Assembly (NCBI GenBank): GCA_025839675.1
Contig: CP104013.1
Span: 2,430,001 to 2,462,000, forward strand
DNA length: 32,000 nucleotides
From: Candidatus Lokiarchaeum ossiferum
Lineage (GTDB): Archaea; Asgardarchaeota; Lokiarchaeia; Sigyniarchaeales; Promethearchaeaceae
Direction of reading: 5' to 3'
Position 1 is the first letter of the stretch, and the number at the start of each line of letters is the position of its first letter. This document shows positions 3,668 through 18,170 of this stretch, in pieces. Under the pieces are notes generated by a model. The model ran no database searches and was not told the DNA's origin. It saw only the letters and a program-made list of their open reading frames with translations. A program made the position numbers and the translations under genes.

Positions 3668-4492
3668 TTATTTTTGGCTTATTTCACGCAATATGGGTAT
3701 TTCAAGCGTGCAGTTAACACATTCTAATATCCCGATTCGAACGAGGTAATTCTGGATCATTAAGCACATTTCTCTATCAAACGATTCATAAAGCACCCGA
3801 TTGGTCTTATTTTGATCAAGATTATCTTTAAACAAAGCATAGAAGCGATCTAAACCTTTTTCAGCTTCTTCATCCAAATAATCTTGTACCATATGAGGTT
3901 TAAACAAGACTACAAAAAGAAGATCATTTTTTGTGGTGATACTCATCTCGATTTCCAACCCTTTCAAAGTAATGCGTTCAATTTTTCCCAAGTTTTCTTC
4001 TCCAAACATGGACAGAGCTGCAATGAATTGTGCAATTAGTTCGAGATTTATAGATTTATCAATTTGAACATAGTACAACAGATCTCCTCCAGATCGGCAT
4101 ATCCCCAAAGCTAAAATATATTCTTTCAACAATTTTTCTACCAGTTCATTTCGACAAAGACGAGGTAAGCTAATTTCCTTTTCAGATTTTGAGGATTTAG
4201 TCTCAATTTCTAAGACTTGATTAAGAAAATGACCTCTGATCCCATCTATACCAAAAAGATGCTTGTGAAAATATTGATGGGTCTTAGTAATATAAAGGAA
4301 TGGCAAGTAAAACTTACAATCATCTTCAATGCAGAATTCTGCAAGAAAATTTGGATCTTCCAATAAATTTTGATAAACAGCGGAATTTTCAATGGATTTT
4401 TCAGTATAGGAAATGTGATTTTGATTAAACCAATCTTTCAGCTGAAAACAGCGATTACAATCGGATTTAGTTATAATGTAGAAATCTTTCAC
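3668..4492 (-). CDS. Two-domain protein: N-terminal glutaredoxin/NrdH-like fold (CNRC) plus C-terminal roadblock/longin-like domain; putative GTPase partner 1
   Basis: The N-terminus FYIITKSDCNRCFQLKDWF...YLPFLYI...GIDGIRGHF fits the Grx pattern: beta1, CxxC, a cis-Pro strand and a GG-type turn. The C-terminal roughly 160 aa is a clear paralog of the ORF at 16304-16804, with shared blocks RSGGD-LY, FIAALSMFGEEN-GKI, LEIEMSI and YL-R-GIL. It is divergently adjacent to a small GTPase gene. Confidence 0.7.
   Translation of the reverse strand: MKDFYIITKSDCNRCFQLKDWFNQNHISYTEKSIENSAVYQNLLEDPNFLAEFCIEDDCKFYLPFLYITKTHQYFHKHLFGIDGIRGHFLNQVLEIETKSSKSEKEISLPRLCRNELVEKLLKEYILALGICRSGGDLLYYVQIDKSINLELIAQFIAALSMFGEENLGKIERITLKGLEIEMSITTKNDLLFVVLFKPHMVQDYLDEEAEKGLDRFYALFKDNLDQNKTNRVLYESFDREMCLMIQNYLVRIGILECVNCTLEIPILREISQK
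3671..4156 (-). other. Roadblock/longin-like domain, copy 1 (paralog of 16304-16804)
   Basis: The beta-beta-alpha-beta-beta pattern (ILALGICRSGGDLLYYVQ / ELIAQFIAALSMFGEE / IERITLKGLEIEMSITTKNDLLFVVLF) resembles Robl/LC7 (MglB-type) domains. Roughly half of aligned residues are identical to copy 2 by eye. Confidence 0.55.
4208..4492 (-). other. Glutaredoxin-like domain of the 3668-4492 protein (CxxC = C-N-R-C encoded at 4448-4459)
   Basis: The reverse complement of 4448-4459 reads TGT AAT CGC TGT. Position after the first beta-strand and the later LPF (cis-Pro-like) motif fit the thioredoxin fold. Confidence 0.55.
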
Positions 4493-4653: not shown

Positions 4654-4836
4654 ATGATGTTACAAAACTGCACTTCTTGTACGCACTTCCATAATTGTTC
4701 TATGGATGGAATTGACGCCCATTCCTACTGCGCCACAGATCCAGAGGCTGTCGGAGTATGTGATCTATGGGATGGAATACGAAAAACAATAAAAGCATGT
4801 TCAGGTTGGGAAAACCCATCAATTTCAATTTCTTGA
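4654..4836 (+). CDS. Possible 60-aa cysteine-rich miniprotein (6 Cys, CxxCx5C start)
   Basis: The ORF reads MMLQNCTSCTHFHNCSMDGIDAHSYCATDPEAVGVCDLWDGIRKTIKACSGWENPSISIS. It is visibly more GC-rich than the flanking AT-rich intergenic DNA. An A/T box (tttaaatattt, 4586-4596) lies about 60 nt upstream. It sits 91 nt upstream of, and co-oriented with, the GTPase gene. I recognise no homology. Confidence 0.4.
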   Translation: MMLQNCTSCTHFHNCSMDGIDAHSYCATDPEAVGVCDLWDGIRKTIKACSGWENPSISIS

Positions 4837-4927: not shown

Positions 4928-5923
4928 ATGAAAGATCGGATGCTCCAAATTTTTTTAAACTCCGTAATGAAGACGCTAGACTCCCAACTCAATGCGATAC
5001 TGATCATGAATCGTGACGATAAGGTAGTTCTTCGAGTATTCAACAGTAATCTTCCTAAAAAAAAACAAGAAGAAATTGAATCCCTACTCTCATCCAACTT
5101 GACAAAAATTTCTTCTGAATTTGATGGGGATAAGGTTGGTACTTTTGCATTTGCAACGGAAAGTTATCGACTTGTATTTTGTGAAGCCGGATCAGAAGCA
5201 ATTCTTGTCTTTATTTCTCCTAAAATTACGACTCTGGAATATCTATTTTCCTATATTTACCTATGCGCCGAAAAAGTGGTTCGGATTAACTTGGGTAATA
5301 CTACGAGTTTCGTTCTTCCTCATCTCGAAGATTCTGAAGGTGAACATTCAAGTTCAAGTGAAATACAGAAAATTTCTCTTGATTCTGGAACGTTTATTAT
5401 GAAAGTTATTTTGGGGGGAGATTCGAGGGTAGGAAAAACAACTTTGGTTGAAAAATTCGTTAGTGACACATTTAAAGAAGATTTTAAAAGTACCATAGGA
5501 GTTAATCTAATGAAAAAAACCATATCCTATCGGAATTGGAACATCGATGTCACTTTCTCGGTATTTGACATGGGTGGTCAAGATCAATTTGCTCAAGTGA
5601 GACAATCATATTATCAAGGAGCACGTGCAGGATTCATTGTATTTGATGTTACAAGATACGATACATTCCAAAATATCGAAAAATGGTATAAAGAAATACG
5701 AGAAAACGAGCCCAATATCATGTTGTTGCTAGTTGGTAATAAAGTTGACTTGGTAAAGGAACGGAAGGTTTCGAAGACAGAAGGAAAAATTCTATCGAAA
5801 AAATTAGGTATGAAATACCTCGAAACATCCGCTCTAAACAAAGATTTTGTAGAAGAGGCATTTCGAACCTTAGGATTTTTCTATATTTTAAAAAATCGAG
5901 TGGTAAAAATCATCAATAAATAA
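4928..5923 (+). CDS. Roadblock/LC7-like N-terminal domain fused to a Ras/Rab-family small GTPase
   Basis: All five G motifs are present: G1 GGDSRVGKT, G2 T in KSTIGV, G3 DMGGQ, G4 GNKVD, G5 ETSAL. The N-terminal roughly 125 aa (LNAILIMNRDDKVVLRV...YRLVFCEAGSEAILVFISP) has a roadblock-like pattern. A Ser/Glu-rich linker follows. There is no C-terminal Cys prenylation motif (the protein ends VVKIINK). T(7) at 5938-5944 follows the stop. Confidence 0.85.
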   Translation: MKDRMLQIFLNSVMKTLDSQLNAILIMNRDDKVVLRVFNSNLPKKKQEEIESLLSSNLTKISSEFDGDKVGTFAFATESYRLVFCEAGSEAILVFISPKITTLEYLFSYIYLCAEKVVRINLGNTTSFVLPHLEDSEGEHSSSSEIQKISLDSGTFIMKVILGGDSRVGKTTLVEKFVSDTFKEDFKSTIGVNLMKKTISYRNWNIDVTFSVFDMGGQDQFAQVRQSYYQGARAGFIVFDVTRYDTFQNIEKWYKEIRENEPNIMLLLVGNKVDLVKERKVSKTEGKILSKKLGMKYLETSALNKDFVEEAFRTLGFFYILKNRVVKIINK

Positions 5924-5950: not shown

Positions 5951-6805
5951 TTACTTATCTGCTATTATTTTATTACTTTTACTATTGAAATTTCGAGTTA
6001 GGGGTACATACATTTTATCTTTCCAAATAAGAACTATAGCAATTATAACGTAAAATGAAAGCCTAACAAACTCGAAATTTAGGCCGAAGTTAAATACTTC
6101 ACCACTCACATTGATCATCCAATGAAATAGAATAGCAGATAAGATACTTTGATCCGTTTTTTTATTCAGCCAAGTCATTATAATGGTGGGAAAAATTATA
6201 TACCCATTAAAAATCCAAAATAAGGGAGATCCAAATATTACTTCTGTATTTTGATAAGAATCGGGGATGAAATATAAAGGGAAATGCCAAATTGCCCAAA
6301 ATGTTCCCAATATTAGACTGGATAGAAGGGAATTATATTTTATCTGGATTATCGGCAATGCACATCCTCGCCAACCGGGTTCTTCCATGCTCGCAGCAAG
6401 AAAATTAAAAAGGAGGATAAATAAAACTTGGACAGGCAGAATAATGATTGAACCGAAATTAGAAAAACCTATGGGATTGGTGGAAAATAATAGTTCTATA
6501 ATGCCTACACAAATAGAAATCAAAAAATTGAAGAAGATACTGAAAAATAACCATTGCCATTTCTTTCCCTTGCATTGATAGCACCTTTTCCAGAAAGAGA
6601 GTCTCGTTTCTTTTGATTCTAATTTGAACAAACAAAATATTGCCCCAAATAATGGCCCTAAACCACCAATGCTATGAAAAATGATACCAAAGGGAGTAGA
6701 ATAGCTTACTTGAAAGATTATTAAGATACCCCAGAACAACCATGAAAACCCAAACGTAAAAGCAAAAAAAATGAGATTTGGATGGGATTTTTGGATGAAA
6801 GCCAT
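5951..6805 (-). CDS. CPBP-family (CAAX/Abi) intramembrane glutamic metalloprotease
   Basis: Polytopic membrane protein with the three family motifs in order: EExxxR (MEEPGWRG), FxxxH (FWAIWHF) and HxxxN (LFHWMINV). Confidence 0.8.
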   Translation of the reverse strand: MAFIQKSHPNLIFFAFTFGFSWLFWGILIIFQVSYSTPFGIIFHSIGGLGPLFGAIFCLFKLESKETRLSFWKRCYQCKGKKWQWLFFSIFFNFLISICVGIIELLFSTNPIGFSNFGSIIILPVQVLFILLFNFLAASMEEPGWRGCALPIIQIKYNSLLSSLILGTFWAIWHFPLYFIPDSYQNTEVIFGSPLFWIFNGYIIFPTIIMTWLNKKTDQSILSAILFHWMINVSGEVFNFGLNFEFVRLSFYVIIAIVLIWKDKMYVPLTRNFNSKSNKIIADK

Positions 6806-10503: not shown

Positions 10504-10947
10504 TTATTTCTTTGTTTGAATTCGGAGAAGAATTGAATTCCAAAATGCATTCGTGAATTCAGGATCACTCAATTCTACTTTCCCAATTTTAACACGTGCT
10601 ATTTTAGGGAGAATTCCTTTTTGTGACAATTGAAGCTGCCTAATTGGTATTTCTTGACTATCCAATTTCATAGAGAGAGCCTCAAAGGGACATAATGCCA
10701 TACATACCCCACAAAAGACACATTTTGATTGATCTGGCATGATGGGCATCCGCGCAACTAAAGGCACTTTCATTCCTTTGGCAATCACGGGCATCTCCAA
10801 GGCATTTTTAGGACAAGCTTTCACACATTGTTTACAGGTTTTGCATTTATCCAGATGGAGAATTAAATCGGTTTTTCGGGTGAGATATTCCGAAGAAAAG
10901 GTCCGTGTCTTTATTTTTTCAGTAGTAGTAAGGATCGGCCATTTCAT
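10504..10947 (-). CDS. 2x[4Fe-4S] ferredoxin-domain protein, last gene of the hdr/mvhD operon
   Basis: Two CxxCxxCxxxCP motifs are present: CKTCKQCVKACP and CVFCGVCMALCP. Its start ATG overlaps the mvhD stop in an ATGA 4-nt overlap at 10944-10947, which suggests translational coupling. Confidence 0.8.
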   Translation of the reverse strand: MKWPILTTTEKIKTRTFSSEYLTRKTDLILHLDKCKTCKQCVKACPKNALEMPVIAKGMKVPLVARMPIMPDQSKCVFCGVCMALCPFEALSMKLDSQEIPIRQLQLSQKGILPKIARVKIGKVELSDPEFTNAFWNSILLRIQTKK

Positions 10948-11396
10948 GCTTGAATTTCCTCCATGTGATTTAATCGGGCGACTTCTTTTAAGGGATTCGG
11001 CCCGAGTGCTTTTAATTCATGGACATATTCTTTGATCCGTTCAGTAAATTCAGCTCCTTCACTAGCACTAATATGCCAGAGTTGTACTCGTTTCGGATTA
11101 ATACCATATTGTTCAATGAATTTTTGGATCAAGGCGAATCGCCTAACGGTTTTAAAATTTCCTTCAACGTAATGACAATCGCCTAAATGACATGCGCCAA
11201 TAATAACACCATCGGCTCCTTGTTTCAAAGCTTTAAGGGCGTAATCAGGATCCATTCTACCGGAACACATTAGTCGAATGATACGGACGTTTGCGGGACG
11301 TTGCATACGACTTCGTCCAGCTTGATCGCTTCCTGTATATGTGCACCAATTACAGAAGAATCCCACAATGTATGGTTCAAAGTTATCGTTTTCCAT
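10944..11396 (-). CDS. mvhD: MvhD/FlpD-like iron-sulfur subunit (methyl-viologen-reducing hydrogenase delta subunit family)
   Basis: FFCNWCTYTGSDQAG...RLMCSGR...GCHLGDCHY is the family signature. The ORF track starts at a TTG (11405). However, AGGAG at 11406-11410 abuts that codon and sits 9 nt from the ATG at 11396, so I prefer 11396. Confidence 0.8.
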   Translation of the reverse strand: MENDNFEPYIVGFFCNWCTYTGSDQAGRSRMQRPANVRIIRLMCSGRMDPDYALKALKQGADGVIIGACHLGDCHYVEGNFKTVRRFALIQKFIEQYGINPKRVQLWHISASEGAEFTERIKEYVHELKALGPNPLKEVARLNHMEEIQA

Positions 11397-11408
11397 GATG
11401 ACCAACTC

Positions 11409-13394
11409 CTAATTCGCCCCTCCTTCTCCGTGCACTTCCCACGGTTTAAGGGATTCCAATTCACTAAGGACTTGAGTTTTAGTAAAATGATTTTGGTCAA
11501 TGGCACTACTAGGACAGGTGATCATACAGACACCGCACCCTTTACAGCGGAGGGTATCTATCACCGATACATTTTTCTCTTCGTCAAATGAAATTGCATC
11601 AAAAGAACACACCGATAAACATGAACGACACCCGGAACATATTTCAGACCGCACTTCAGCATAGTAGGGTTCAATTTCCACCTCTCCCGCAGCCATGAAA
11701 TTGTCTGCACTGCTCGCAGCAGCTTTTGCTTGAGCGACAGCATCCGGAATATCACGAGGAGCTTGACAAGTACCACCTATGAAAACACCTTGGGAAAGCG
11801 AATCAACGGGGAATAATTTAGGATGGGCTTCCATAAACATCCCATCATCGGTTAATTGGACTCCAAACTTACGGCCCACATCACTGGCATCTTTCCGGGC
11901 TTCAATGGCTGTGGATAAAATAAGCATATCGACTTCGATTTCAAATTTTTCTCCCAAGAGAGTTTCACTACCCTCCAAGATCAAACTTCCATCTACTTTT
12001 TCAAACACGGATCCGATTCTTCCTCGAACAAAGTTAATGCCGTATTCACGAGCAGCAATTTCATAAAACTCTTCATATCCTTTCCCAAAAGCTCGGATAT
12101 CCATATAAAAAATGTAAACTTGGGAATCAGGATATTTTTCTTTATATTGACGGGCTTGTTTCATAGCATACATACAACATACTCGACTGCAATATTTGTG
12201 ACACCCCTCATGAAAATCACGCGAACCAACACATTGTAAGAATCCCACACTTTTTGGGGTCTGGTGATCTGAAGGTTTGATAACTTTCCCGAGAGTAGGC
12301 CCAGTGCTACTAAGGATCCGTTCAAATTCGATGGCAGTCAGAACATTTTTATATTTCTTGTAACCTAACCGCGCAATTCCACTGGGATCAAAAATATCAT
12401 TCCCGGTAGTTAAAATAATGGAACCAACTGTGAGATCGATTAATTCATCTTTTCGACTTAAATCAATAGCCCCAACTTCACAAGCTTGAACACAAAGCCC
12501 GCATTCAATACAGTTTTGGGAATCAATCGTGTATTGTTCTGGGACTGCCTGAGGAAATGGAATATACGCCGCGGCCCTATGACCCAAATTGAGATCAAAT
12601 TCATTAGGAATTGTGAGAGGACATGCTTGAGCACAAGCTCCGCAGCCCGTACAAATATTGCCATCAATTTTCGACGCTTTTCTTCTCACAGTTACTTTAA
12701 AATTGCCCACATTTAGATCCACGTCTTCAACTTCAGAATACGTTAGTAAATTGATATTTGGATGGCGACCAACTTCGACCATTTTTGGAGTAATAATACA
12801 CGCAGAACAATCCATGGTTGGAAATGTTTTATCCAGTTGGGCCATATGTCCTCCAATAGTGGGACTCCGCTCAACGAGATGTACTTTGTATTTATTGGTT
12901 AAATCTAAAGCTGCAAACATGCCCGAAATGCCTCCTCCCACAACCAAAGCTTCTTGAACCACAGGAAATTTTTGGCGTTCAAGGGGTTTGTTATGGGAGA
13001 CTTTTGCAATCGCCATTTTTAAATGATCCTTGGCGATGTCTAAAGCACCTGGATGATCATGCATATTTACCCAAGAAGCATGTTCACGAATATTCGCTTG
13101 TTCAAAGAAAAACTCATTGAATCCGTTTTTTTTCATCACGGTTCGATAAGTATCTTCATGCATTAAAGGACTACAAGCAGCCACAACCACCCTATTTACT
13201 TTTCCAGAGTTTAAATCATCGGCAATCATTTCTTGGCCGGCTGTACTGCACATAAATTTGTATTCTTTCACGAGAGATACATTTGCAAGTTGCGAAGCAT
13301 ATTCACATAGCGCATCAATATCCACGACATCGGAAATATTTTTTCCACAATGACACACATAAACTCCCACTTTGACATCATCTGAGTTGGACAA
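11409..13394 (-). CDS. hdrA: Heterodisulfide reductase subunit A (FAD plus multiple Fe-S clusters)
   Basis: 661 aa. It has an N-terminal Cys cluster (VCHCGKNIS), a dinucleotide fold (VVGGGISGMFAALDL), and four ferredoxin-type motifs (CTGCGACAQACP, CIECGLCVQACE, CSGCRSCLSVCS, CKGCGVCMITCP). It starts at TTG, preceded by GGAGGT 8 nt upstream inside the end of hdrB. Confidence 0.9.
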   Translation of the reverse strand: MSNSDDVKVGVYVCHCGKNISDVVDIDALCEYASQLANVSLVKEYKFMCSTAGQEMIADDLNSGKVNRVVVAACSPLMHEDTYRTVMKKNGFNEFFFEQANIREHASWVNMHDHPGALDIAKDHLKMAIAKVSHNKPLERQKFPVVQEALVVGGGISGMFAALDLTNKYKVHLVERSPTIGGHMAQLDKTFPTMDCSACIITPKMVEVGRHPNINLLTYSEVEDVDLNVGNFKVTVRRKASKIDGNICTGCGACAQACPLTIPNEFDLNLGHRAAAYIPFPQAVPEQYTIDSQNCIECGLCVQACEVGAIDLSRKDELIDLTVGSIILTTGNDIFDPSGIARLGYKKYKNVLTAIEFERILSSTGPTLGKVIKPSDHQTPKSVGFLQCVGSRDFHEGCHKYCSRVCCMYAMKQARQYKEKYPDSQVYIFYMDIRAFGKGYEEFYEIAAREYGINFVRGRIGSVFEKVDGSLILEGSETLLGEKFEIEVDMLILSTAIEARKDASDVGRKFGVQLTDDGMFMEAHPKLFPVDSLSQGVFIGGTCQAPRDIPDAVAQAKAAASSADNFMAAGEVEIEPYYAEVRSEICSGCRSCLSVCSFDAISFDEEKNVSVIDTLRCKGCGVCMITCPSSAIDQNHFTKTQVLSELESLKPWEVHGEGGAN

Positions 13395-13396
13395 AT

Positions 13397-14377
13397 TTAA
13401 TTACCTCCTTCAGTCAAGGGCATATTCTTGACTTTTTCTAATATTGGGTCTTGTGATGTGAAGGGTGAAATACCTTTCATGTCCGCAGGTTTTATCATCC
13501 CTAAACGTTCTGGTTCAATTCCCATGGCTAAACCAAGAAGTTGAGTAATATAGATTACAGGAATTTGGAATGGTACTTCTCCTTCATCCATTAAATTCGC
13601 TACTTCCAATTGTCCTAAATCATACTGCAATTGGCAAAATGGACAACATACCACAATGCAATCTGCCCCTGCCTTTCGAATTTCCCGTAATTTTTCCAAA
13701 GTTAAGTGGGAACTCACGGATTTATTGGCTGTCCGCACAGCTCCACCTGCCCCACAACACATCATCTTCTTACGATAAATGATGGAAGTAGCTCCAGTTG
13801 CTTCAACAATTTCATCAAAGAATGTGGGATCATCAGGATCTTGCCCAAAAACTTGAATTGCGGCGGGTTTTAAAATGTGACAGCCATAATGGACCGCAAC
13901 ATTCAGATTAAGCTTACGTTTTACCAAGGATTTGATTTTTTCAACACCGATATCATAATATAGGACATCCATGATGTGGCGAACTTTTGAAGTTCCGGTA
14001 TAAGTGCGACCCACAGATGATAGCACTTCATTAACGCGTCCTTTAAGTTCTTCATTATGCTTAAGTTGATGATCTACCTCATTTAAAGTTCCATTGCATC
14101 CATTACAAAGGGTGAGGAGATCATTATGATTTTGTTCAGCAATGTTAATATTCCGAGCCCCCACGGTGAGCCACATAGCTTTATCCACAGACCGAAAAAC
14201 GCCTGGAGCAGGGCAACAACTCGCACCTTCCATTTCATCTACTTTAATATTCAACTCATCAAACAAGGTGCGTGATGCGCGTTCAATCATAGGATACCTA
14301 TTAGGAATCACACAGCCCAAAAAGAGGGAATAATTCAATTCCTTTGAAGATTTATCTGATATTTTTTCACTTTCCAT
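13397..14377 (-). CDS. hdrB: Heterodisulfide reductase subunit B (two CCG domains)
   Basis: Two cysteine-rich CCG-type motifs are present: CCPAPG with CNGCNG, and CCGAGG with CCPFC. AAGGTGA lies 7 nt upstream of the ATG, directly after the hdrC stop. Confidence 0.9.
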   Translation of the reverse strand: MESEKISDKSSKELNYSLFLGCVIPNRYPMIERASRTLFDELNIKVDEMEGASCCPAPGVFRSVDKAMWLTVGARNINIAEQNHNDLLTLCNGCNGTLNEVDHQLKHNEELKGRVNEVLSSVGRTYTGTSKVRHIMDVLYYDIGVEKIKSLVKRKLNLNVAVHYGCHILKPAAIQVFGQDPDDPTFFDEIVEATGATSIIYRKKMMCCGAGGAVRTANKSVSSHLTLEKLREIRKAGADCIVVCCPFCQLQYDLGQLEVANLMDEGEVPFQIPVIYITQLLGLAMGIEPERLGMIKPADMKGISPFTSQDPILEKVKNMPLTEGGN

Positions 14378-14389
14378 TTTTAGGTCACC

Positions 14390-14920
14390 TTAAAGTTGAT
14401 AGGGAATCCTGCCGTTAAACTTGATTTTGTTGATTAGAGTATAGAGCTCATCCATTGCTTCTGGATAACTATGGACTGTTGGAGGTAGGGGGGGAAGATC
14501 CATTTTGATACGTAATTTGGCCCAAGTAGACAGTTCACCACCCAATGGTACAGCGTGACCATGCTGCACCAAATTTTTAATCACACCTTTCAATGGATCG
14601 GGAATATGACCTTCACGAACAGCCATATTGCGCAATTTTAGAATGATTTCGGTCACTGGAATCGTTCGTGGACAGCGTTCATAGCAATTAAAGCAGGTTG
14701 AACAAAGCCAAATATCATTACTTGACAGAACTGATTCTAAGCCAACGAGCGCTTGCCGCATAATTTTTCGTGTTTTCATAGCGGTCCAGTTACCTGAAGG
14801 GCAACCTGCAGAACACTCCCCACACTGGATGCATGCCCGAATTTTACTATGGGATTCTTCAATGGATAATTCTGTGAGAATATCAGGATTAAATTGTATT
14901 AAATTTTTATTTCGGCTCAT
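14390..14920 (-). CDS. hdrC: Heterodisulfide reductase subunit C (2x[4Fe-4S])
   Basis: CIQCGECSAGCP and CSTCFNCYERCP are present. The track ORF extends to a GTG at 14944. The ATG at 14920 (MSRNKNL...) follows a purine-rich GAAGGGAAGGAA and is preferred. Confidence 0.85.
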   Translation of the reverse strand: MSRNKNLIQFNPDILTELSIEESHSKIRACIQCGECSAGCPSGNWTAMKTRKIMRQALVGLESVLSSNDIWLCSTCFNCYERCPRTIPVTEIILKLRNMAVREGHIPDPLKGVIKNLVQHGHAVPLGGELSTWAKLRIKMDLPPLPPTVHSYPEAMDELYTLINKIKFNGRIPYQL

Positions 14921-14980
14921 TTCCTTCCCTTCATTATTAAACACCTTCGACGTAGGAAAGTTAGGGAAAACTTCAAATTC

Positions 14981-15306: not shown

Positions 15307-15327
15307 TAATTTTTGAGATGCGAAATT

Positions 15328-16281
15328 ATGGTCACAATTGCAGATGGACGGTTTAGTCTACCGGATAATCTTCTATATACGAAAAATCAACATGTATATT
15401 TGAATAATGATAAAAAAACACTCGGATTAGATGAGATTGGTTATGCCTTCTTGCACAATCCAAATGAATTGAAAATTTTAGTTGAGGATGAAGTGAAAAT
15501 AGGGATTCCTTTCGCAGCAATTACCACAGATTCAGGAATGACAACATTGAATTCTCCATGCTCAGGAAAAATTAAGCAATTAAATCCTAACGCACTTGCC
15601 TCAATGAAAGATCATACCTATGAAACAGGATTTATCATTGAATTGGAAGAGATCACCGAAGTCCAACCAAATTTGGTAACGGGGTCTGAATTGCAAGAAT
15701 GGGGAAATAATGAAGTCAAAACTTTAGTCCGAAACAATTATTCCTTCAAGATCATTGAAATTGGCGATTCGGCAGTAGGAAAAACCGCAATAAAAGTGCG
15801 TTTTACTGATAACTATTTTAAAAAGGATCTAAAAACAACCTTAGGAGTGGATTTTGGTTCCAAAGAAATCAAGGGAGAGTATATTAGCAGCGATATTTTG
15901 TTCTCGGGCACTTATCGTTTCACGGCCAAAATGAATGTTTGGGATGCAGCCGGACAGGCCATGTATGACAAAATTCGAGGTATGTACTATCGAGATGCAA
16001 AGGGTGCACTTATGTGTTATGATGTACACAATCATTTATCCTTTGAACATTTAGAGAAGTGGCGAGAAGAGCTAGAAGAGAGTTTGGGAAAAGTACCTGT
16101 CCTTCTCGTTGGAAATAAGATTGATCTGGAACGAAAGGTCACCCGTCAAGAAGGTTTAGCTTATGCGATGAAGCATAATTACCTTTTTGTTGAGTGTTCT
16201 GCCAAAACAGGTGAAGGTGTTGATGACATGTTTAAACAGCTCGCCGTAGAGATATTCAAGCGGGAAGAAAAATTAGAGTAA
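15328..16281 (+). CDS. GcvH-like (glycine-cleavage H fold, no lipoyl lysine) N-terminal domain fused to a Rab-like small GTPase
   Basis: GTPase motifs: G1 GDSAVGKT, G2 TTLGVDF, G3 WDAAGQ, G4 GNKID, G5 CSAKTG. The N-terminal roughly 125 aa aligns by eye to GcvH: LLYTKNQHVY versus YSKEHEW, SPCSGKIKQLNPNAL versus APVSGEIVAVNDAL, and ETGFIIELE versus GGWIFKIK. The track start (TTG at 15313) is probably an extension, and the ATG at 15328 is preferred. There is no C-terminal Cys. Confidence 0.85.
   Translation: MVTIADGRFSLPDNLLYTKNQHVYLNNDKKTLGLDEIGYAFLHNPNELKILVEDEVKIGIPFAAITTDSGMTTLNSPCSGKIKQLNPNALASMKDHTYETGFIIELEEITEVQPNLVTGSELQEWGNNEVKTLVRNNYSFKIIEIGDSAVGKTAIKVRFTDNYFKKDLKTTLGVDFGSKEIKGEYISSDILFSGTYRFTAKMNVWDAAGQAMYDKIRGMYYRDAKGALMCYDVHNHLSFEHLEKWREELEESLGKVPVLLVGNKIDLERKVTRQEGLAYAMKHNYLFVECSAKTGEGVDDMFKQLAVEIFKREEKLE
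15346..15696 (+). other. GcvH-like hybrid-barrel domain; the position equivalent to the lipoyl lysine is Ser (codon 15532-15534)
   Basis: Counting 8 residues upstream of the conserved P in P-x-S-G gives ITTDSGMTTLNSP against E. coli AESVKAASDIYAP. This places D-S-G where V-K-A lies. Confidence 0.55.
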
Positions 16282-16303
16282 TCGGAGAAATAGGTGAAAA
16301 ATT

Positions 16304-16804
16304 GTGGTGAACGAGCTAATTTTTGAGCGATTTAAATCGAATAATTTAACCGACAGTCAGTGCCAGCTTGTTCAAAAAATTTTAAAGCACTATATTTTAG
16401 GAATTTTCATTTCTCGTTCTGGGGGGGATATTCTATATGATTTTCAGCTTGATGAAAGCATCAAGATTGATCTTATCTCCCACTTTATCGCAGCTCTTTC
16501 TATGTTCGGGGAAGAAAATGTAGGAAAAATCAAACGAATTTTCATTGAAGGACTAGATATTGAGATGAGTATTGTTCAGAAACACGATCTGGTAAGTGTT
16601 ACTTTTTTCCGTCCCAATATGGTCAAGGATTACCTAGAAGCGGAATCAAGTAAAGGATTAGATCTGTTTTACAATATGTTCGAAGAATCTATCAAAGCAG
16701 GCAAAAATAATAAAGCCATTTATGAAGGATTTGACGATCCTATGTGCCATTTGATTCAAGAATATTTGCAAAGATTAGGTATTTTAAAGGATAAAGAAAA
16801 ATAA
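16304..16804 (+). CDS. Roadblock/longin-like protein, putative GTPase partner 2 (paralog of the C-terminal domain of 3668-4492)
   Basis: 166 aa. It has a GTG start with AGGTGA (16292-16297) 6 nt upstream, only 22 nt after the GTPase stop, so it is likely co-transcribed. Shared blocks with the 3668-4492 protein are ISRSGGDILY, FIAALSMFGEENVGKI, LDIEMSI, KDYLE, KGLD-FY and QEYLQRLGIL. Confidence 0.7.
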   Translation: MVNELIFERFKSNNLTDSQCQLVQKILKHYILGIFISRSGGDILYDFQLDESIKIDLISHFIAALSMFGEENVGKIKRIFIEGLDIEMSIVQKHDLVSVTFFRPNMVKDYLEAESSKGLDLFYNMFEESIKAGKNNKAIYEGFDDPMCHLIQEYLQRLGILKDKEK

Positions 16805-16808
16805 TATA

Positions 16809-16815
16809 TTTTTTT
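16809..16815 (+). terminator. Oligo-T tract after GTPase module 2
   Basis: T(7) begins 5 nt after the stop at 16804. Confidence 0.4.
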
Positions 16816-17450: not shown

Positions 17451-18170
17451 ATGAAGGTCTCGAAATTCCAAATTTGGTTCATGGATCATCTCGAACGTTT
17501 GCAGAATCAACATGTAGAAATTCGACAATTAATAGTGGAGTTACTTTCCTTAACAAAAAAAGCAAATACAAATAAAAATGCAGAGGAAATTGCACTTATT
17601 TTAGGAAGAATTTCGGGACGATTCAAATTGAACCATACTATGGAAAGCAAGAGTGTTTACCAATACCTAATGGATTCTCATGACACGCAAAAAATGAAAA
17701 TTGCGAAGACATTTTTAAGTGAAATGGAGAATTTAATGACCGAATTTGCCCAATATCGAAAAAATTATCGATTAAGTTATGATATTAAAGCCAATATGCC
17801 ACAATTTAAGAAAATCAGCGAAATTATTTTTCGGAAGATTGAAATCCGATTAAATCAAGAAGATAATACTTTATATCCCTTGGTTGATGAAGAGAAACTT
17901 GATATGAAAATACATAATGCAATCCAATCAACAAAAAGGATTGGACAACATGGAACACCTAAACGGGAGATTTTTCCCGAAAATGAAGAAGACTATCAAA
18001 AGATAGAACTCACTCAAGAACAACTAAAACTCGAGCAACCCATTCGTATTTCATTAGTAAATTCAAAGATTTCGTCAAATCCAATAAAAAAAAACGCAGT
18101 GAATGAATTTATGGAAGAATTGAAAGAAATTGACAGAAAAGATTCCGAAAAAACAAAAACAAATAAGTAA
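17451..18170 (+). CDS. Helical protein with weak hemerythrin/HHE-like features and a Lys/Glu-rich tail
   Basis: DH..L....H..I at the N-terminus, NHTMESKSVYQYL (H-x2-E...Y..L) and RLNQEDNTLYPLV (E-D-x-x-L-Y-P) resemble HHE cation-binding repeats. Several expected His residues are missing, so the call is weak. Confidence 0.35.
   Translation: MKVSKFQIWFMDHLERLQNQHVEIRQLIVELLSLTKKANTNKNAEEIALILGRISGRFKLNHTMESKSVYQYLMDSHDTQKMKIAKTFLSEMENLMTEFAQYRKNYRLSYDIKANMPQFKKISEIIFRKIEIRLNQEDNTLYPLVDEEKLDMKIHNAIQSTKRIGQHGTPKREIFPENEEDYQKIELTQEQLKLEQPIRISLVNSKISSNPIKKNAVNEFMEELKEIDRKDSEKTKTNK

Follow-up and report, generated by a model that had tools for sequence, protein, structure and literature searches.

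Asgard archaeal genomes contain dozens of small GTPases and of roadblock/longin proteins, and cognate pairs are hard to assign since the genes are generally not arranged in operons (Tran et al. 2024, PMC10933270). A stretch of 32,000 nucleotides from Candidatus Lokiarchaeum ossiferum (Lokiarchaeia, Asgard archaea), in the following called the window, raises the question whether two such pairs can be recognised from their gene order. An earlier note on this DNA had stated that one domain, here termed the partner domain, is duplicated in the window, each copy next to a small GTPase, and had argued that adjacency conserved after duplication reflects a specific functional pairing. Both open reading frames (ORFs) were indeed present and both neighbours belong to the Ras family. 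The argument for specific pairing held for copy 2, where the adjacency is kept across genera, but not for copy 1, where it was seen in Lokiarchaeum only. We consider it rather probable that copy 2 is co-transcribed with its upstream GTPase and binds it as a roadblock/longin-type platform, whereas copy 1 is a glutaredoxin-fused paralogue whose juxtaposition with a GTPase is not conserved. For scans of this kind it is a caution that just one of the two adjacencies noticed is evolutionarily conserved.

The partner domain and its fold

Copy 1 lies on the minus strand (NEF87_002021, 3668..4492) and encodes 274 amino acids, with a glutaredoxin-like domain, a linker and, as the C-terminal part of the ORF, a roadblock/longin-like domain at about residues 116-257 (3722-4147). 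Copy 2 on the plus strand (NEF87_002034, 16304..16804) is a stand-alone roadblock/longin-like protein of 166 amino acids, 100% identical to family member P0001. A BLASTP comparison of the two gave 81 identical residues out of 142 (57%), 80% positives and no gaps at an E-value of 2e-58. This similarity far exceeds chance and is slightly greater than the half of all positions estimated by eye before; every peptide string quoted at that time was found in the translations. The gene contexts differ as had been described, copy 1 being divergent from its GTPase and fused to glutaredoxin, copy 2 co-directional and stand-alone. No third copy of the domain was detected in the window with the family hidden Markov model (HMM).

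Searched exhaustively with a profile, a set of 1.84 billion representative proteins yielded 68 clusters in total. All named members came from Promethearchaeota/Lokiarchaeota, bar one labelled Hodarchaeota, and an additional locus with 35% identity was retrieved from a Helarchaeota metagenome-assembled genome (MAG). The family is small, unannotated and confined to Asgard archaea, mostly Lokiarchaeia. Its core fell into three clades in a neighbour-joining tree: clade A with stand-alone proteins, among them copy 2, clade C with the glutaredoxin-fused proteins, among them copy 1, and clade D with proteins of 160 amino acids.

AlphaFold2 (AF2) models were built independently for the two copies, with predicted local distance difference test (pLDDT) scores of 85.8 for copy 2 (predicted template modelling score, pTM, 0.83; topology alpha-beta-beta-alpha-beta-beta-beta-alpha-alpha) and 80.8 for copy 1. 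Both exhibited an antiparallel beta-meander of five strands. One helix, the "top" helix, is inserted between strands 2 and 3 and stands alone on its face, and an N-terminal and two C-terminal helices pack against the opposite face. Foldseek searches of the PDB with either copy returned almost exclusively roadblock/longin proteins (probability 1.0, E-values from 4e-4 to 5e-3). The best match of copy 2 was Roadblock2 of P. syntrophicum MK-D1 (9jq8, E 4e-4), accompanied by LAMTOR/Ragulator, Mon1-Ccz1, MglB, zeta-COP and adaptor sigma/mu subunits; copy 1 retrieved the same list and, in addition, the VAMP7 longin domain, TRAPP and an SRP-receptor domain. Searches of PDB sequences gave no match at E <= 10, neither with a single sequence nor with a 33-sequence profile. 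Among 40 distant relatives, Pfam MAPKK1_Int was matched by 11, Fuz_longin_1 by 6 (best E 2.7e-8), Robl_LC7 by 3 and Longin by 2, mostly below threshold. From the structure matches and from the Pfam matches of the distant relatives we conclude that the modelled partner domain belongs to the roadblock/longin superfamily, as a divergent member that has gone unannotated, despite modest template modelling scores (TM-scores) that are weighed below. The earlier note had left room for a well-characterised family of unrelated function; the domain instead fits a fold class known mainly for binding and regulating small GTPases. The models predict an unusual combination in the partner domain, a roadblock-typical N-terminal helix together with the two C-terminal helices typical of longins.

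The same note had proposed the invariant helix, FIAALSMFGEEN, as a candidate interaction surface. In copy 2 this segment spans residues 61-72 (16484..16519, plus strand), that is the C-terminal half of the top helix (H55-66) and the loop to strand 3; in copy 1 it spans residues 156-167 (3992..4027, minus strand), with the helix modelled at H150-161. F61, A64, L65, F68 and G69 were invariant in 33 sequences, and E70, E71 and N72 were kept in at least 90%. Conservation was highest at F61-I79 and G83-I90 (copy 2 numbering), a region comprising the latter half of the top helix, the adjoining loop and strands 3-4. Domains of the roadblock/longin fold dimerise via strand 3 and the top helix and bind the GTPase on their top face (Levine et al. 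2013, PMC3747258). The conservation maxima of the partner coincide with the interface so described, and the proposal appears structurally sensible on the models. Two partner genes, tandem or convergent, follow the GTPase in loci L003, L005, L006 and L024, and in P0077, a singleton on a short contig, the domain is tandemly repeated in one chain of 315 amino acids. Both arrangements fit a dimeric platform.

Copy 2 and the GTPase gene upstream of it

The cognate GTPase of copy 2 is encoded on the plus strand at 15328..16281 (317 amino acids, Pfam Ras, E 1.8e-46). The listed ORF begins with TTG at 15313; comparison with orthologues placed the true start at ATG 15328 (MVTIADGR). Its Rab-like G domain carries the G1-G5 motifs of the Ras superfamily (GDSAVGKT, the T in TLGVDF, WDAAGQ, GNKID and CSAK), including the catalytic Gln in DxxGQ, and all of them are invariant or nearly so among orthologues. 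The C-terminal prenylation Cys of eukaryotic Rabs is absent, as the protein ends in ...EIFKREEKLE with no Cys.

The N-terminal 140 residues, with a mean identity of 70% among orthologues, belong to a GcvH-like domain (15328-15750, plus strand). A homologue search with the N-terminal 143 amino acids gave one protein, and orthologues were taken from the fetched loci. A profile of 12 orthologues retrieved 13 matches in the PDB, 11 of them GcvH (best E 3.3e-4). Pfam GCV_H matched 10 of the 12 orthologues (best E 3.2e-5), the window copy staying at 16.1 bits, under the cut-off of 22.2 bits. The lipoyl-lysine column is not conserved and holds S, Q, A, T, R or N; the domain is therefore, to judge by its residues, not a lipoyl carrier. 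It also bears a near-invariant Cys in an SPCSG motif, at a place where GcvH has V.

Between the stop of the GTPase gene and the start of the co-directional copy 2 there is a gap of 22 nucleotides. A Shine-Dalgarno-like motif AGGTGA (16292..16297, plus strand) precedes the GTG start of copy 2 by 6 nucleotides, and a run of 7 T (16809..16815, plus strand), a candidate archaeal termination signal, directly follows its stop. Both were read from the sequence and suggest a bicistronic GTPase-partner transcript. A scan for sigma-70 promoters and intrinsic terminators, with models that are not applicable to archaea, gave nothing above shuffled sequences.

Gene context was counted over 59 fetched loci, scored with the family HMM and BLAST. 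Full-length orthologues of the GTPase, 59-71% identical, were found directly upstream of a clade A partner, with gaps of 9-196 nucleotides, in the window and in L003-L007, L014-L017, L024, L033, L034 and L054. Among these, L007 is the clade A locus of P. syntrophicum MK-D1, with the orthologue of copy 2 at 5956-6474; the same organism is represented again by L020 for clade C. Synteny breaks off right behind the partner gene. In the reciprocal direction, metagenomes were queried with the GTPase upstream of copy 2. Within the GTPase clade linked to Hdr genes, the partner was found downstream in 12 of 13 loci with readable downstream sequence, immediately so in 11; at L028 GTPase and partner are separated by a 4-kb insertion with reverse-transcriptase fragments. 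By comparison, the density of small GTPases in MK-D1 would put a GTPase directly beside only about 4% of genes. The pairing in this reciprocal test is specific, not universal.

The pair has also been duplicated as a unit, since the L. ossiferum genome holds a second GcvH-like GTPase (64% identical) beside the paralogue P0059 (L001). In P0079 (L029 285-1439) the two are joined in one chain, where the partner domain (E 2e-43) stands N-terminal to the G domain and replaces the GcvH-like domain. The G domain of this fusion is 47% identical to the subfamily of the cognate GTPase, versus 30% to the GTPase beside copy 1. With DIAGP in place of DxxGQ, the fusion has lost the catalytic Gln.

Several observations weigh against copy 2 being a dedicated platform for this GTPase. 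TM-scores to solved roadblock/longin structures were modest (0.35-0.48 on the query, 0.5-0.63 on the targets), and the partner domain of neither window copy matched Pfam at E <= 1. The fusion P0079 is a singleton on a 1.9-kb contig. About ten GcvH-GTPase paralogues come without a partner and are followed by two SIS-domain genes (L038, L043-L050, L056), and the Hdr-linked locus L039 carries a HEPN/nucleotidyltransferase pair at the partner position. All loci stem from related Lokiarchaeia, so that part of the conservation of gene order is inherited and not selected. Finally, as a rule the GTPase genes of MK-D1 do not share operons with roadblock/longin genes (Tran et al. 2024, PMC10933270), a statement to which the present pair is an unlisted exception.

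We rejected the broader proposition that every GcvH-like GTPase has a partner in cis, given the SIS-linked sister clade and L039. In that sister clade, two adjoining SIS-domain genes, each for about 365 amino acids, lie behind the GTPase gene in convergent orientation. Clade D partner genes lie between GTPase and SIS pair in L001 (3667-5867) and L003 (7118-9383) and are missing in about ten other loci. The GTPase-partner junction itself is a site of insertions, with N-terminal reverse-transcriptase fragments at L028 6443-9742 and the HEPN/nucleotidyltransferase pair at L039 5734-6523.

Copy 1, its glutaredoxin-like domain and its GTPase neighbour

The N-terminal domain of copy 1 (residues 1-95, 4208-4492, minus strand) was modelled with pLDDT values of 83-96 and a beta-alpha-beta-alpha-beta-beta-alpha topology (E4-8, H13-24, E30-33, H37-53, E65-68, E73-75, H87-93). 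A C12-N-R-C15 motif is placed at the start of helix 1, and L63-P64 puts Pro64 before strand 3. Both features expected of a thioredoxin fold, a CxxC where helix 1 begins and a cis-Pro loop ahead of strand 3, are thus present in copy 1, and the CxxC is kept in orthologues. Pfam Glutaredoxin (PF00462) was the top match in 4 of 4 orthologues tested, with 26.5 bits for P0142 against a gathering score of 22.9 bits and 18.8 bits for P0069; on the window copy it reached 12.5-14.2 bits, below threshold. The position of the CxxC in the model and the Pfam matches of the orthologues bear out the earlier assignment of this domain to glutaredoxins.

A disordered linker connects the glutaredoxin-like to the roadblock/longin-like domain. 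Three Cys pairs are kept in the glutaredoxin-fused clade: C12/C15, C54-x4-C59 after helix 2, and C258-x-x-C261 in a C-terminal tail modelled with low confidence. These pairs could serve as a metal site or as a relay of intramolecular disulfides. We read copy 1 as an ancient paralogue fused to a CxxC glutaredoxin domain, plausibly a redox-sensitive form of the same platform.

The GTPase beside copy 1 (4928..5923, plus strand; 331 amino acids, Pfam Ras, E 2.3e-45) is transcribed divergently across an intergenic region of 435 bp. Our data did not confirm that adjacency was conserved after duplication, since the two GTPases of the window are not matching paralogues: they are 35% identical, in the G domain only, and their N-terminal domains are unrelated. 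The N-terminal part of copy 1's GTPase, about 150 amino acids (4928-5377), looked roadblock-like by eye and gave a weak match to Pfam MAPKK1_Int (E 0.12). An hhalign comparison of its N-terminal 152 amino acids with the partner-family profile was negative (probability 1.3%), and a phmmer search with the domain against the PDB gave no match.

We regard it as unlikely that each copy is a specific regulator or effector of its own adjacent GTPase, copy 1 working with the protein encoded at 4928-5923. The divergent arrangement across a shared intergenic region and a fold that typically binds GTPases speak for this possibility, and the MAPKK1_Int match could permit a heterodimer of two roadblock domains. 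However, none of six clade C loci from other genera (L008-L013, from MK-D1, three Promethearchaeum MAGs, Harpocratesius repetitus and MAG HM1_B6_4) had a Ras-like ORF within 5-6 kb, even at E <= 1; the clade C neighbours in MK-D1 are an AsnC regulator and a DUF711 protein. Copy 1's GTPase also belongs to a family other than that of the conserved partner GTPase. The arrangement recurs only in L019, from a close Lokiarchaeum relative (85% identity) where the flanking GNAT and 366-amino-acid genes are likewise syntenic; L019 is so close to the window that it adds no independent support. Chance has to be considered as well. With 74 small GTPases in the 4.3 Mb of MK-D1, an immediate GTPase neighbour is expected by chance for about 4% of genes, which is not negligible over several paralogues and not rare enough for one lineage-specific adjacency to carry much weight. 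Copy 1 and the GTPase at 4928-5923 are probably no conserved pair, and their adjacency, specific to Lokiarchaeum, looks like a local coincidence.

This distribution bears on the family at large. The earlier note would have given up the pairing if most members elsewhere were not adjacent to GTPase genes. Clade A shows the adjacency, but small-GTPase neighbours are missing in clade C, in the greater part of clade D and in the distant members (L018, L026, L030 and L031), and we rejected the notion that the whole family is GTPase-linked. One of the distant members, of 146 amino acids (L026 5001-5441; L027 1668-2108), lies between a CCA-adding enzyme and EF-2, and the second gene upstream is that of aIF5B, so that the GTPases in its neighbourhood are of the translational and not of the Ras-like kind. 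In L024 a gene for a clade C-like protein adjoins that of a clade A partner, which makes heterodimers between clades A and C conceivable. Between copy 1 and the divergent GTPase of the window there is a Cys-rich ORF of 60 amino acids with 8 Cys (4654-4836, plus strand); no gene was called at the equivalent position of L019.

Hdr genes and the proposed GTPase switch

A cluster encoding HdrC, HdrB, HdrA, MvhD (FlpD) and a ferredoxin (10504..14944, minus strand; Pfam CCG, Fer4, FlpD, NAD_binding_8/Fer4) lies divergent from the operon of copy 2 and its GTPase. Its HdrA, 661 amino acids in length, represents the long type that includes ferredoxin domains and has MvhD as a neighbour. All five genes recur beside the orthologous GTPase co-directionally, with gaps of about 45 nucleotides, in L004-L007, L024, L032, L033 and L055, and divergently in L014, L017/L034, L028 and L039. 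In Promethearchaeum, all seven genes of Hdr cluster, GTPase and partner are co-directional with gaps of about 45 nucleotides or less. At L051, a paralogous GcvH-GTPase is found beside the large subunit of a NiFe hydrogenase and HdrB/C-like genes. Where Hdr genes are absent (L003, L001, L040/L041), the partner remains with the GTPase.

For copy 2 and its GTPase we propose the following sequence of events. The two genes would most likely be transcribed together. The partner would dimerise via strand 3 and the invariant top helix, the region of FIAALSMFGEEN, and the dimer would present its top face to the switch regions of the G domain and control its nucleotide state, in analogy to MglB, an indirect GTPase-activating protein (GAP), and to Ragulator, Mon1-Ccz1 and TRAPP, which are guanine nucleotide exchange factors (GEFs). 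The GTPase switch may act on, or respond to, the Hdr redox complex, a relation suggested by the genetic tie of the pair to the HdrCBA-MvhD-ferredoxin cluster. As to the direction of regulation, we weakly favour a GEF-like role by analogy, since the GTPase is Rab-like and longin/roadblock platforms are mainly GEFs (Tran et al. 2024, PMC10933270). A GAP-like or a scaffold role is possible.

A further-reaching version of this proposal is tempting, although we hold it to be a tentative one, with the doubts outweighing the hopes. GTPase and partner could together act as a switch, driven by GTP, that serves specifically the electron-bifurcating HdrABC-MvhD-ferredoxin complex of Lokiarchaeia, with the glutaredoxin-fused copy 1 feeding the thiol-redox state into the same platform. 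Such a switch might control assembly, localisation or activity of the Hdr complex, or the GcvH-like domain with its Cys in SPCSG might dock on HdrB. If true, small-GTPase signalling of eukaryote type would be coupled directly to syntrophy and central energy metabolism in those cultured organisms that are most closely related to eukaryotes.

The Hdr genes could also be the sole reason for the observed neighbourhood. The partner would then serve HdrABC-MvhD primarily, as a redox sensor or as a subunit with an accessory or assembly function, and would stand beside the GTPase merely through a shared Hdr neighbourhood, without regulating it. The Hdr cluster adjoins most clade A loci, and does so fully co-directionally in Promethearchaeum, the paralogous clade bears a CxxC glutaredoxin domain, and the locus L051 couples a GcvH-GTPase paralogue to hydrogenase and HdrB/C-like genes. 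Yet the partner stays with the GTPase at the Hdr-less loci, and the roadblock/longin fold has no known redox role, so that we find this explanation quite improbable. Equally improbable is a generic roadblock/longin adaptor or small-ligand sensor unrelated to GTPases, such as a dynein-light-chain-like adaptor or a fold-back module of the SNARE-longin type: the GTPase-free neighbourhoods of clade C, most of clade D and the distant members would agree with it, as would the non-GTPase partners of some eukaryotic longin/roadblock domains (Levine et al. 2013, PMC3747258), but the strict adjacency in clade A, the co-duplication, the fusion and a conservation strongest on the canonical platform face would not.

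The platform that we propose for copy 2 resembles several known systems. As in MglB-MglA, a small stand-alone roadblock-type protein and a GTPase form a two-gene operon. MglB structures (6h5b, 6hjm, 3t12) were among the Foldseek matches, and a dimeric platform with top helices would be expected. The likeness to MglB is structural only, with TM-scores for copy 2 of 0.41-0.43 on the query and 0.51-0.55 on the MglB chains; no sequence homology of the window copies to MglB or to Pfam Robl_LC7 was detected. MglA-type GTPases have an intrinsic arginine finger and an atypical G3 in which the Asp of DxxG is missing, whereas the GTPase described here is Rab-like, with GDSAVGKT and a canonical WDAAGQ, and carries a GcvH-like N-terminal domain. 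The gene order also differs, the GTPase coming before the partner, and the partner has two additional C-terminal helices.

Ragulator/LAMTOR (MP1-p14) and Mon1-Ccz1/TRAPP ranked among the best structural matches (5y3a, 1veu, 5x6u, 9rs7, 5ldd, 3cue), and distant family members matched the Pfam models MAPKK1_Int and Fuz_longin_1. The heterodimeric platforms that these complexes provide for Rab and Rag GTPases are paralleled by the tandem partner genes of L003, L005, L006 and L024. TM-scores of just 0.35-0.63, no sign of further subunits and a prokaryotic operon beside redox enzymes, not membrane-traffic genes, set the present system apart.

Closest in origin are the Asgard roadblock proteins of MK-D1 and Thorarchaeota (9jq8, 9jue, 7f8m; Tran et al. 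2024, PMC10933270), which come from the same group of organisms and share the fold class; the partner, however, has no sequence match to those chains, is about 50 residues longer and lacks a Pfam model. In Asgard archaea, 130 asCOGs of the roadblock superfamily and an operon of LAMTOR1-like, Rab-like and DENN genes have been described (Liu et al. 2020 preprint). This operon is a precedent for a roadblock and Rab-like pair, although the DENN gene is missing here. In MK-D1, 26 of the 74 small GTPases are fused to roadblock/longin-type domains. Roadblock/longin proteins paired with or fused to small GTPases are thus a well-known Asgard theme, and our pair is not new in kind. What is new is the partner family itself, which has no model and no annotation beyond "hypothetical".

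Also new are the GTPase that combines a GcvH-like with a Rab-like domain and the repeated association with Hdr/Mvh redox genes. In the searchable literature we found no description of a GcvH-like small GTPase or of a GTPase-Hdr link in Asgard archaea. GcvH-like LbpA proteins are encoded together with Hdr-like genes in bacteria and archaea that possess sHdr. The cognate GTPase recalls this arrangement by its GcvH-like N-terminal domain and its place beside Hdr genes. It differs in that the lipoyl-lysine is not conserved, in that HdrA is of the long 661-amino-acid type with MvhD, and in that the domain is fused to a GTPase.

The GcvH-like domain and the recurrent Hdr/Mvh linkage point to a role outside membrane traffic, which bears on the function of "eukaryotic signature" switches before eukaryotes. 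Both Lokiarchaeia in culture, L. ossiferum and P. syntrophicum MK-D1, possess this conserved and probably co-transcribed pair of GTPase and putative regulator, which puts biochemical tests of an archaeal roadblock/longin-GTPase switch within direct reach.

A minor observation concerns hemerythrin. A hemerythrin-domain protein is encoded at 17451-18170 (plus strand), two genes downstream of copy 2, and another hemerythrin gene (L031 3549-3983) lies one gene away from the distant family member P0080. These neighbours may be a coincidence or an additional redox/O2 link.

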